A program made the translations under genes and the position numbers. The notes beneath the pieces are model-generated. The model had not been told where the DNA came from. It saw only the letters and a program-made list of their open reading frames with translations, and searched no databases. Below are positions 10,074 to 49,490 of a DNA stretch of 64,000 nucleotides, piece by piece. The stretch is from the NCBI RefSeq assembly GCF_013122565.1, contig NZ_CP053258.1. One strand, written 5' to 3'. The stretch's first letter is position 1; each line of letters opens with the position of its first letter. The stretch is from Escherichia coli (GTDB taxonomy: Bacteria; Pseudomonadota; Gammaproteobacteria; Enterobacterales; Enterobacteriaceae).

Positions 10074-10940
10074 TTAAGCACGTGCGAGGAAATTCAGCAC
10101 CAGTTGATTGAAAGCGTCGGCATGTTCCCACTGCGCCCAGTGACCACAGTCGCGGAAGATATGCAGTTCAGAACCGGCAATGCCGGCCAGCAGACGCAGA
10201 CCCGCATCCATCGGCACAAAGCGGTCGTTGCGCCCCCAGACAATCAGGGTTTGCGCTTTGATTTCCGCCAGACGTGGGCCAAAATCCGGGAACTGTTTCG
10301 GATTAGCTTCCAGGCTCTTAACGAAATTTTCCAGGTGATCGCGGCGCGACAGCATATTATTCAGGCGCGCTTCAAACAGGGCGTCGGTCAAATCGCTGGT
10401 ATCAAAAACGAAGATATCCATCATCAGCTTCAGGTTTTCGATAGTCGGCTGACGATACAGCTGATTCAGTCGCTTAATACCTTCGGTTGGCATCGGCGTA
10501 AACAAACTCATGCCGCCCGTACCGCCGCCCATCAGCACCAGTTTGCCGACGCGCTCCGGCCAGTTAAGGGTGAACGCCACAGAACTATGGCCACCCATCG
10601 AGTTGCCCAGCAGGTGGATTTTGGCGATATCCAGTTGATCCACCACGCTTTTCAGGATTCGTGCATTAAGATCCGATCGCGAACCACTATTAACGATCGA
10701 ATCACTCTTGCCCCAACCCGGACAATCCAGCAGGATCACCCGATAGCCCGCCTCTACCAGCGGATCGATATTGCGGCTGAAGTTCGCCCAGCCAGTAGCA
10801 CCCGGGCCGGAACCGTGCAGCAGGACAACGGTTTCGTCGCCTTGTCCGCAGTCATTAAAATGGATGCGCAGCGTTTTACCCGCTTCTTCTACATTCAGAA
10901 AACGGCTGGTGGCGGCTTCGGTTTGTGGCTGATAACTCAT
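10074..10940 (-). CDS. mhpC: 2-hydroxy-6-ketonona-2,4-dienedioate hydrolase (alpha/beta hydrolase)
   Basis: 288 aa from [14 protein letters not shown]; GNSMGG nucleophile motif; track ORF extends 21 codons upstream. Confidence 0.9.
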
Positions 10941-30399: not shown

Positions 30400-31683
30400 T
30401 TACCGTTTGTAATCGATGGCTTCTGGCTGCTCCAGATATACGGTGGTTTGTGCCGGTTGTGTACTGGCAATCACCTTGCCGCCCCGTACCGAATAACGTA
30501 CCGGAACCTGACGGCGCAGCGCATCAAATCCATTTTCAGCCGGCAGGATAATCAGGTTGGCGCTGTTTCCGGCGGCAATGCCGTAATCCTGCAAATTCAA
30601 CGTCCTGGCGCTGTGGTGGGTGATTAAATTCAGGCCATCGTTAATCTGCCCGTAGCCCATCAGCTGGCAAACATGCAGCCCCATATGGAGTACTTGCAGC
30701 ATATTCGCCGTTCCCAGCGGATACCACGGATCGAAGACATCATCGTGACCAAAGCAGACGTTAATGCCGGACTCCAGCATCTCTTTAACGCGCGTGATGC
30801 CGCGACGTTTTGGATAGGTATCGAAACGTCCTTGCAGATGGATATTGACCAGCGGGTTGGCGACAAAGTTAATACCGGACATTTTCAGCAAGCGGAACAG
30901 GCGTGAGGTATACGCCCCGTTATAGGAGTGCATTGCCGTGGTGTGGCTGGCGGTAACTCGCGCGCCCATGCCTTCACGGTGCGCCAGGGCAGCAACGGTT
31001 TCGACAAAGCGCGACTGTTCGTCATCGATCTCATCACAGTGAACGTCGATGAGACGGTCGTATTTTTGCGCCAGGGCGAAGGTTTTATGCAGCGACTCCA
31101 CGCCGTATTCGCGGGTAAATTCAAAATGCGGAATCGCCCCCACTACATCTGCCCCTAAGCGTAGCGCCTCTTCCAGCAACGCTTCACCGTTGGGATACGA
31201 CAAAATCCCTTCCTGCGGGAAGGCAACGATTTGCAGATCAATCCACGGCGCGACTTCCTGCTTCACTTCCAGCATTGCTTTTAGCGCAGTCAGCGTTGCA
31301 TCCGAAACATCGACATGGGTACGCACATGCTGAATACCGTTGGCAATCTGCCATTTCAGCGTTTGCCAGGCGCGTTGTTTCACATCGTCATGGGTTAATA
31401 ACGCTTTGCGCTCGGCCCAGCGTTCAATGCCTTCAAACAGCGTGCCGGACTGATTCCAGTTCGGTTGTCCGGCGGTTTGCGTGGTGTCCAGGTGAATATG
31501 TGGCTCCACAAACGGCGGTATAACTAAACCTTGTTCGGCATCCAGGCTGTTTTCAGTTATGGCCATCACGCCGGATTGCGCATCAATGGCGCTGATTTTT
31601 CCGTCGTGAAGATGAATCTGCCACAGCCCCTCTTTGCCAGGTAAACGGGCGTTACTAATTGTTTGTAAAGCGTTATTCGACAC
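30400..31683 (-). CDS. codA: Cytosine deaminase
   Basis: 427 aa beginning at GTG (VSNNALQTI...); amidohydrolase metal ligands HIHLD; overlaps codB stop. Confidence 0.9.
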
Positions 31684-32932
31684 TGTTAGCCTCCACATGC
31701 GTCATTGCTGCTGTCGTTTTACGATTCAAAATCGGGTTAATGATCAGATAGCTCAGCGCGCCACCTAATACCGCGTTGACCGGAACAATTCCCGGTAACC
31801 AGTGGCCTGCGGCAATCCCCAGCGCGACCGCCAGAATCGCCACCCAATTGACACTCATCATACGCGTGGTCGCAAAGTGCTCATAGCGGCGACGGTTCAT
31901 CAGATAGTCGGCGATGATTACGCCCCCTACCGGAGGAATAGCTGCCGAAAGGAAGGTCAGCCAGCCGACAAAATTGTTATACAGCCATAATGCGCAGACC
32001 GTACCGATAATACCGTTGATTACCGAAAGGGTTTTGCTCGACATACCGGTAATGTTGGCGAAACCTAAACCCGACGCATAGAGTGCGTTATCGTTGGTGG
32101 TCCAGATATTCAGCCCCAGCACCACAATCGCAGGCAGCAGCAGGCCCTGAGCAATCATCACATCAGAGATATCCGCCATCCCCAGTGCCGCCGCGCCCGC
32201 TGCACCGAAAATAAACATCAACGAGTTGCCGAGGAAAAAGGCCACCATCGCCACCAGCACCGCCAGTTTGGCATTGCGACCAAACCGGACAAAGTCAGCG
32301 GTGAGCGTACCCGCACTGATAAATGACCCCACAACCAGCGCCAGTGCGACATTGAAATCTAGCGGTTGTGCAGGAACGACCGCTTTTAAGGCGTCCAGAC
32401 CGCCCATGCCGTTAACGGCCAGCCACACGGAATAACCACCAAGGCAGGCGATGGCCGGAACCGCAATCACCGAAAGAACGGTCAGCGCCGAAATACCAAA
32501 GAACACGGTGACGGTCATCAGTAAACCGGAAACGGCAATCAGCAAATTAATATCCAGCCCAGTTGCCTTGCCCACCGGAATGGCAAACATCGCCACGCCA
32601 ACGCCAAACCAGCCAACCTGGGTGCCGCCCAGCAGCAGTGAAGGCAGCCATGAGCCTTTAACACCAAACGAGAAGCGAGCAAGAAGATGGGTGGTCAGGC
32701 CGGTTTTTGCGCCAATGTAACCAAGAAATGAAGTGTAAATACCGAGGAGAAGATTACCGATGAGAACTGCGAGGAAGAAATCATGATAGCTAAGACCGGT
32801 TCCGAGAGTGCCGCCGGTCCACATACTGGCGGAAAAGAAGGTTAATCCCAGCATGACGAACGTCAATGCCAATACCCCTTTCCGCGCCGACTGCGGGACT
32901 GGCCCCTGGCTAAAGTTGTTATCTTGCGACAC
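31673..32932 (-). CDS. codB: Cytosine permease (NCS1 family)
   Basis: 419 aa polytopic transporter immediately upstream of codA. Confidence 0.92.
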
Positions 32933-32998
32933 GAAATTCCCCCTTTTTGCTGTTTGAAACCCAAAAAATCCGCCGCATTCTATTCATCTGAAGATAAA

Positions 32999-33016
32999 AA
33001 GCAATCGTTTTCGTGG
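32999..33016. promoter_or_regulatory. PurR-box-like operator upstream of codB
   Basis: aagcaatcgttttcgt matches the PurR consensus ANGCAAACGTTTNCNT with one mismatch, about 70 bp upstream of codB start. Confidence 0.45.
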
Positions 33017-33087
33017 GGAAATATATTTTTTATATGAATGAGTGCAAAAAGGTGGGGGAAAAATTATCGGTGTAAAAACAGTGGGCA

Positions 33088-33165
33088 GGCATAATAAGAC
33101 GCGGTAAGCGTCGCATCAGGCATCTGCGCATGGTGTCGGATGCGCCAGGCGACGCATCCGACAAT
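33088..33165. repeat. REP/BIME element
   Basis: ataagacgcggtaagcgtcgcatcaggcatctgcgcatggtgtcggatgcgccaggcgacgcatccgaca palindromic units between codB promoter and prpE end. Confidence 0.8.
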
Positions 33166-48071: not shown

Positions 48072-49490
48072 TCAGACGCCGTAACGTTCGCACCAGCCAA
48101 GAATGGCTTTCTCGAAGCAGGCGAATGGCGGATGCACAATGCCCGCGCCAATCATGCCGACGCCCGCATCTTTATGGGCGATGGCGGTGTTGATCACCGG
48201 CAGAATGCCGCTGCTACCCACGCGGGTGATGTCGATTGCCGACGGCACGCCCATAAAACCGAGCAGCGGAATGGTGACGTTGGGGTTTTCACCGAGGGTG
48301 ATTTCGCGCATCTGACGGGAGAAATCGATAGCCTCTTCCACCGTACCGCCCACCAGCGCGACGATAGCGGGCGCGGTCGCCATAGCAAATCCGCCAATAC
48401 CGTAGGTTTCGGTGATGGCGCTATCGCCGATATCCAGCCCCGAATCTTCCGGCTTATAACCGGCAAACATCGGCCCGATCACCTGCTGCGCCGGGCCGGT
48501 AAACCATTGCCCCGGCAGGCCGCTGACTCGCAGGCCAAACTCGACGCCGTTACGTGCCATCGTGGTCACCACGGTGCTGTATTCGATGCCGTGCGCCGCA
48601 TCCATCGCCGCTTTACACATCGCCATCCACGTCGGGCCGGAGAAGTAGTCGCTGCTGGCGACAAACTCAAATACTTCGCGCTGTTGCTCCACGGAATAAC
48701 CTGCCTGAATAATCCCCGGCGTCAGCGCCTGAATCAGCAGCGTCGTCCCGGCGTTATTGCGGTTATGGCATTCATCGCCCATATGCAGCGCCTGCGCCAG
48801 CATTAAGCGCAGATCGATCTCGCCGATAATTTTCATCGCGTCGCGCAGCATTGGTCCCTGCACATCGCGCATCCAGTTCAGGCGGTCAATCACGCTCTGG
48901 TCGTTAGCGCCCATACGCAAAATCTTCGCCATCTGCTCGCTCATATTGGTATAAGCGATGTTGCCGTAGGTTTTGTTTTTCACGATGTGCATAAACATCG
49001 AGGCCGAGGTAACGCCCGCCATCGATCCCACGCAGTCGTGTTCGTGGCACGGCGAGAAGGTGATCTCCCCGGAGGCCGCCAGTTCAGCCGCCTCGTCGAG
49101 ATCTTTCGCCAGCCCTTCGAACACCAGCGCCCCGGTGACCGCGCCTTTCATCGCGCCGCACATTTTTTCCCAGGTAACCGGCGGCCCGGCGTGAAGAATG
49201 GTTTTCGGCGTCATGCCCGGCACCACGTTAATCGCCTGATCAAAACCAATCAGCACCGGATGCGACTGGATAATGCGCTCCAGCGCCTGCTGGTTAGCGG
49301 CGGCGATTTTGTCTGCCAGCGGCGAATCGGTAATGTTATCCAGCGCCTGCACCACCTGCATATTGCCCTGCCCCGGCGGCGTCCAGTCGAGTTGGGTCAC
49401 TTCTACGTGCTGCTTTTTCAGGTCATCGCTAAACATGGCGATGCCGACGTTAATAACGTTCAACGGTTGGCTAAACAGTGACTGGCTCAT
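48072..49490 (-). CDS. yahG: DUF1116-family protein (YlbE-like)
   Basis: 472 aa; length and synteny match K-12 yahG. Confidence 0.85.
   Translation of the reverse strand: MSQSLFSQPLNVINVGIAMFSDDLKKQHVEVTQLDWTPPGQGNMQVVQALDNITDSPLADKIAAANQQALERIIQSHPVLIGFDQAINVVPGMTPKTILHAGPPVTWEKMCGAMKGAVTGALVFEGLAKDLDEAAELAASGEITFSPCHEHDCVGSMAGVTSASMFMHIVKNKTYGNIAYTNMSEQMAKILRMGANDQSVIDRLNWMRDVQGPMLRDAMKIIGEIDLRLMLAQALHMGDECHNRNNAGTTLLIQALTPGIIQAGYSVEQQREVFEFVASSDYFSGPTWMAMCKAAMDAAHGIEYSTVVTTMARNGVEFGLRVSGLPGQWFTGPAQQVIGPMFAGYKPEDSGLDIGDSAITETYGIGGFAMATAPAIVALVGGTVEEAIDFSRQMREITLGENPNVTIPLLGFMGVPSAIDITRVGSSGILPVINTAIAHKDAGVGMIGAGIVHPPFACFEKAILGWCERYGV

Follow-up and report, generated by a model that had tools for sequence, protein, structure and literature searches.

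The codBA operon and its promoter

The stretch of DNA considered here, hereafter the window, covers 64 kb from Escherichia coli in which the genes follow the canonical yah-prpRBCDE-codBA-cynR-cynTSX-lacAYZI-mhp order of this species. The codBA operon lies on its minus strand, with codB as the first gene (31673..32932, 419 aa, GTG start; it bears this name in annotated E. coli genomes) and codA as the second (30400..31683). The former encodes cytosine permease (NCBIfam NF008241, 694 bits with a cut-off of 326) and the latter cytosine deaminase (NCBIfam NF006685, 898 bits). With the RefSeq start of codA, taken from the coordinates annotated in a 99.4%-identical genome (locus L086), the two genes overlap by 11 bp. 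The codA ORF called mechanically spans 30400..31698 on the same strand and begins at an ATG, giving a protein of 432 aa, compared with 427 aa (1284 bp) in RefSeq. The operon is preceded by prpE, encoding a propionate--CoA ligase (1301 bits), and cynR is found beyond codA on the opposite strand. The purR gene itself is located outside the 64-kb window.

The window matches E. coli K-12 MG1655 base for base over a segment that begins about 190 bp upstream of codB and includes the start of the gene. Differences are found only further upstream in the prpE-codB spacer, where the window lacks one of the K-12 REP units (about 93 bp) and carries some substitutions within the REP sequences. Palindromic repeats of the REP/BIME type (inverted repeats I1, I2 and I4) occupy 33098..33163 of this spacer, and because of these repeats a 321-bp query matched a median of 3 places per genome. 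The 166-bp codBA promoter was present in 5223 of 5426 complete E. coli genomes. At 96% of genomes, this is at odds with an earlier note on this DNA, made from the sequence alone, which had placed the promoter in an accessory region. Three sampled E. coli strains have promoters with 94-96% identity, and their substitutions all fall upstream of the site discussed below, with the exception of one inside codB in a single strain.

This site is a 16-bp sequence resembling the operator of the purine repressor PurR (PUR box). It reads aagcaatcgttttcgt on the plus strand at 32999..33014 and ACGAAAACGATTGCTT on the minus strand, which is the codB-sense strand. Its assignment as a PurR operator draws on the sequence itself, the score in a position weight matrix (PWM), a published ChIP-chip motif and conservation across species. 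The central CpG occupies positions 8-9 of the 16-mer (33007/33006), and 67 bp separate the codB-proximal edge of the box from the first base of the GTG at 32932, in good agreement with the "about 70 bp" given in the earlier note. The interval proposed there, 32999-33016, does contain the 16-mer, with two extra bases (gg) at its far end that do not belong to it.

The transcription start sites of codBA, which we take to be G7 and A8, correspond to G 32970 and A 32969 of the start region GATTTTTTG (32962..32970, minus strand), where UTP-sensitive start-site switching and reiterative transcription take place. The initially transcribed region of the operon is 5'-ATTTTTTG (Qi and Turnbough, 1995, as quoted in PMC7039003), and this sequence is found at 32969..32962 on the minus strand, with G 32970 just before it. 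Judging from the distance to this published start, TAGAAT (32977..32982, minus strand) is the probable -10 hexamer; it coincides with a TA...AT island that is conserved at the same place in a cross-species alignment. Located from this -10 element and the published initially transcribed region, the presumed -35 element is TTGCTT (32999..33004, minus strand), a weak hexamer with 3/6 matches to the consensus that lies 16 bp upstream of the -10 and wholly within the PurR box. Relative to the A start at 32969, the box spans -45..-30 with its centre at -37.5. Downstream of the start, a Shine-Dalgarno-like GGGGGA (32938..32943, minus strand) ends 5 nt before the GTG and forms part of a purine-rich block that is conserved in the alignment.

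Further upstream, a NAC-type site of the form ATA-N9-TAT (ATATAAAAAATATAT) is found at 33021..33035 on the minus strand, 6 bp upstream of the PurR box and centred at -59. Muse et al. reportedly mapped, in 2003, the NAC site at codBA to -59. The candidate agrees with this placement and with ATA-N9-TAT, which we take to be the NAC consensus. Three controls are stacked within about 75 bp: an activator site of the NAC type at -59 for nitrogen limitation, the PurR box at -37.5 for purines, and GATTTTTTG with its UTP-sensitive switching for pyrimidines. The last of these is familiar from the upp-uraA and pyrBI promoters, which show UTP-sensitive reiterative transcription and share the same type of T-run start (ATTTTTTG in codBA, GATTTTTTTTG in upp). 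Control of the upp-uraA/pyrBI type works through the start region and responds to pyrimidines, whereas the PurR box of codBA is a distinct element that adds control by purines.

A simple scan with the sigma-70 consensus did not report the mapped codBA promoter because its -35 matches at only 3/6 positions. The same scan gave TTTGCA-17-TATATT (33020..33048, minus strand, 9/12 matches), which we do not take as the codBA promoter. This candidate overlaps the NAC-type ATA-N9-TAT, and a transcript initiated from it would start within the PurR box.

Match to the PurR operator and identity with the K-12 site

How many mismatches the 16-mer has depends on the form of the consensus and the strand on which it is read. 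On the codB-sense strand, there is one mismatch to the degenerate consensus ACGNAAACGTTTGCNT of Cho et al. (2011), with A instead of T at position 10. Three mismatches are counted against the perfect palindrome ACGCAAACGTTTGCGT, and two when the plus strand is compared with ACGCAAACGTTTTCNT. The single mismatch reported in the earlier note is therefore correct for the first of these comparisons and too low for the other two. The box is an imperfect palindrome, only 10 of its 16 positions being self-complementary.

With at most one mismatch to ACGNAAACGTTTGCNT allowed, the codBA box was the only site in 64 kb, where 0.03 would be expected from 100 dinucleotide shuffles. It was still the sole site in the window at two mismatches or fewer, with 0.76 expected. 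At this level the consensus alone is a weak test, and a PWM was therefore derived from Table 1 of Cho et al. (2011; PMC3159470), using all 27 ChIP-chip motifs of PurR other than that of codBA. In this leave-one-out setting, the codBA box scored 21.9 bits, which is above the median of the training sites (the 27 ChIP-defined sites range from 12.1 to 25.0 bits) and represents a high, not a low, outcome for the scan that the earlier note had suggested. The corresponding p value is 1.6e-8 per position, with 0.002 matches expected per window and 0.15 per whole E. coli genome. It is the top match in the window by about 7 bits, with the runner-up at 15.1 bits. This second match, ACGAACACGACTGCGT (49030..49045, minus strand), lies inside the yahG ORF, and a third, AGGACAACGGTTTCGT (10822..10837, plus strand, 14.4 bits), lies inside an mhp gene. 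Between 0.4 and 0.6 matches of the 14.4-15.1-bit level are expected by chance per window; given this number and their intragenic location, both were taken as chance matches and are probably meaningless.

Compared with the canonical operators of purF, purT, purHD and purMN, which are likewise 16-bp imperfect palindromes with a central CG in the -35/-10 region, the codBA box scores in the same range: purT scores 25.0 bits, purF and purHD 22.8 each, codBA 21.9 and purMN 18.2. Positions 10 and 15 set it apart from these operators, with A in place of T at the former and T in place of G at the latter. The operons differ as well, since purF, purT, purHD and purMN belong to purine biosynthesis and codBA to pyrimidine salvage and nitrogen scavenging.

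As far as sequence can tell, the codBA box has every feature of a PUR box that was checked. It agrees with both the consensus and the PWM. It carries the central CpG step, whose C and G do not vary in any of the 16 genera aligned. This step is where PurR kinks the DNA, as seen in crystal structures of PurR-operator complexes. Its location at -45..-30, covering the -35-like hexamer, is one from which transcription could be blocked, and the box is kept in lineages that bear PurR and absent where PurR is absent.

Binding of PurR to this sequence is already documented in K-12. In the PurR ChIP-chip region assigned to codB-codA, the motif printed in Table 1 of Cho et al. (2011; PMC3159470) is ACGAAAACGATTGCTT, the identical 16-mer. 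The K-12 peak has a log2 ratio of 1.41 with adenine, and no value is listed without adenine. In the same study, codB was 34.5-fold down upon addition of adenine, and codB and codA were counted among the 23 genes directly repressed by PurR (PMC3159470). PurR sites in general were found to fall between the -35 and -10 elements (Cho et al., 2011; PMC3159470). Involvement of purR in the regulation of codA dates back to Andersen et al. (1989), going by the title of that work as cited in PMC9853098. RegulonDB grades the codBA PurR site as having "strong evidence" and not as "confirmed" (PMC3548332). ChIP-chip has a resolution of a few hundred bp, so that it is the motif which ties the peak to the 16-mer; the literature searched contained no in vitro footprint, gel shift or mutated operator for the codBA box itself. 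Part of the 34.5-fold effect of adenine on codB may be indirect.

In the K-12 genome (NC_000913.3), the box is located at 354,840..354,855 and codB starts at 354,922, so that the same 67-bp spacing is observed and the motif stands at the same position as the published operator with which the earlier note had proposed to compare it. The coordinates given by Cho et al., 354,064-354,079, are offset from NC_000913.3 by a constant 776 bp, presumably owing to a difference in genome version. No differences exist between the window and K-12 in the 16-mer, the flanking promoter or the spacing. Since the promoter is identical to that of K-12 and the same 16-mer is given in Cho et al. (2011), both are the same object, and we conclude with a probability of roughly 95% that the flagged site is the already published codBA PurR operator of K-12, real, functional and previously known. 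Control of codBA by PurR through this box, as put forward in the earlier note, thus corresponds to the published situation (Cho et al., 2011; RegulonDB). Occupancy by PurR in vivo and repression dependent on purR and purines are taken from the literature on the identical K-12 sequence, and it is by this identity that they would apply to the window.

Conservation across codB loci

The same PWM was applied to 300 bp upstream of codB at 80 loci, with one genome per species and a threshold of at least 15 bits. A box at or above this threshold was found in 28 of 29 loci in Enterobacterales and in 9 of 10 in Pasteurellales. For Vibrionales the count was 8/35, which rises if sites at about -328 are included, and none of the four loci from other orders (Marinobacter, Shewanella, Pseudoalteromonas) had a box. 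PurR orthologues are confined to Enterobacterales, Pasteurellales and Vibrionales (PMC4052901), and these four loci therefore serve as a natural negative control. In the first scan, the best score in control windows from codB coding sequence was 9.2 bits. In a further scan, eight control windows reached 15 bits; five of these correspond to Vibrio sites at about -328 from codB, just beyond the 300-bp window, and these five are probably real sites rather than noise.

This picture disagrees with a comparative study from 2008, according to which S. typhi and S. typhimurium alone have kept the link between PurR and codBA (PMC2329645), whereas the present scan finds a strong box in nearly all of the Enterobacterales and Pasteurellales species.

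The arrangement is conserved together with the sequence. Box and start codon are 58-67 bp apart in Enterobacterales and Pasteurellales, and in all 28 box-bearing Enterobacterales as well as most Pasteurellales, the centre of the box is exactly 37 nt from the ATTTTT start. An alignment of 16 genera contains only four conserved islands: the half-sites of the box with the central CG, the -10 element, a GC-rich discriminator and the T-run at the start. All 16 aligned Enterobacterales share ATTTTT without change, and 15 of them have GATTTTTT. The invariant columns of the box (G.AA.CG.TTGC) span both half-sites and extend beyond the -35 hexamer.

In Vibrio, boxes are found at differing distances from the codB start, about 100 bp at some loci (L061, L062 and L066-L068) and about 328 bp at others (L032, L035, L041, L044 and L071). 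Their varied distances point to a promoter architecture unlike the Enterobacterales/Pasteurellales type. Many Vibrio species lack a box of at least 15 bits upstream of codB.

Mode of repression and origin of the arrangement

When hypoxanthine or guanine is plentiful, a PurR dimer with its corepressor binds the 16-bp imperfect palindrome, where it would cover the weak -35 TTGCTT and keep RNA polymerase off the promoter. Exclusion of the polymerase would in turn reduce transcription of codB (permease) and codA (deaminase). With the -35 hexamer lying inside the PurR box, repression most likely works, judging by position, through steric occlusion of the -35 region.

PurR might instead repress mainly by blocking contact between NAC and RNA polymerase, an effect that could also act alongside occlusion. 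The NAC-type site (33035..33021) directly upstream of the box would be well placed for this, a -35 as weak as that of codBA suggests that the promoter is probably dependent on an activator, and codB and codA are indeed up-regulated by Nac (PMC9853098). However, the overlap between box and -35 is sufficient for occlusion. Moreover, the strict ATA-N9-TAT beside the box is limited to E. coli loci, whereas the box is far more widespread: among the Enterobacterales loci examined (L006-L081), essentially none outside E. coli has the strict pattern upstream of the box. That the box is kept where a NAC site is not recognizable implies that it works in such promoters, and we consider a predominant role for NAC blocking unlikely. 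NAC may control codBA in Escherichia alone; alternatively, a strict pattern may miss sites of so degenerate a motif. Matches to ATA-N9-TAT do occur in Pragia and Leminorella, at another position.

Two further explanations concern what the 16-mer is rather than how it acts. It could in principle be bound mainly by a different LacI-family repressor whose motif is similar, with PurR occupancy being secondary. RbsR, the closest paralogue of PurR, would be one candidate, given that PurR is descended from RbsR and still recognizes the ancestral DNA motif (PMC4052901). Against this, the site was recovered by ChIP-chip with tagged PurR and its repression is purR-dependent (PMC3159470); the PWM in which it scores so highly was made from PurR-bound sites only; and the box is missing from the codB loci of orders without PurR. 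This explanation is accordingly very improbable. Even less credible is a chance likeness to the PUR box of what is merely a promoter element, the -35 with an upstream A/T tract, such that conservation would reflect promoter function alone. The distal half of the box does coincide with the -35 hexamer, and the failure of the sigma-70 scan to report the mapped promoter was counted in favour of this idea. On the other hand, a match of this quality is hardly expected by chance in a window of this size, and PurR is bound to the identical K-12 sequence in vivo. The invariant columns take in the central CG as well as the half-site that lies outside the -35 hexamer, and conservation of that half-site argues against the box being a mere promoter element. 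The PurR operator hence remains the reading that we adopt, with occlusion of the -35 as its most likely mode of action.

The site accounts for the shut-down of cytosine uptake and deamination by purines in E. coli, and the codBA promoter combines purine, pyrimidine and nitrogen signals within the 75 bp described above; both are published for K-12. Beyond correct annotation, the importance of the present observations is slight. What they add, modestly, is the cross-species footprint, with the box at -37.5 in nearly all codB promoters examined from Enterobacterales and Pasteurellales. That conservation is so broad and so rigid is the one mildly new point, and curated regulon databases may already record it.

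On balance, we lean towards an ancestral and rigid PurR-codBA module that joins the -10, the GC-rich discriminator and the T-run to a box whose centre precedes the ATTTTTT start by exactly 37 nt. Such a module would have persisted from the last ancestor shared by Enterobacterales and Pasteurellales and would have travelled with the codBA cassette into new contexts such as that of Hafnia paralvei, with NAC control as a later, E. coli-specific addition. In Hafnia paralvei (L007, 1373..4042), CodB is 94% and CodA 90% identical to the proteins of the window, whereas those of Salmonella and Citrobacter reach about 83%. At the DNA level codB is 84% identical, and the promoter hardly differs between the PurR box and the GTG, but prpE is not found upstream. 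This suggests an old transfer of the codBA cassette together with its operator.
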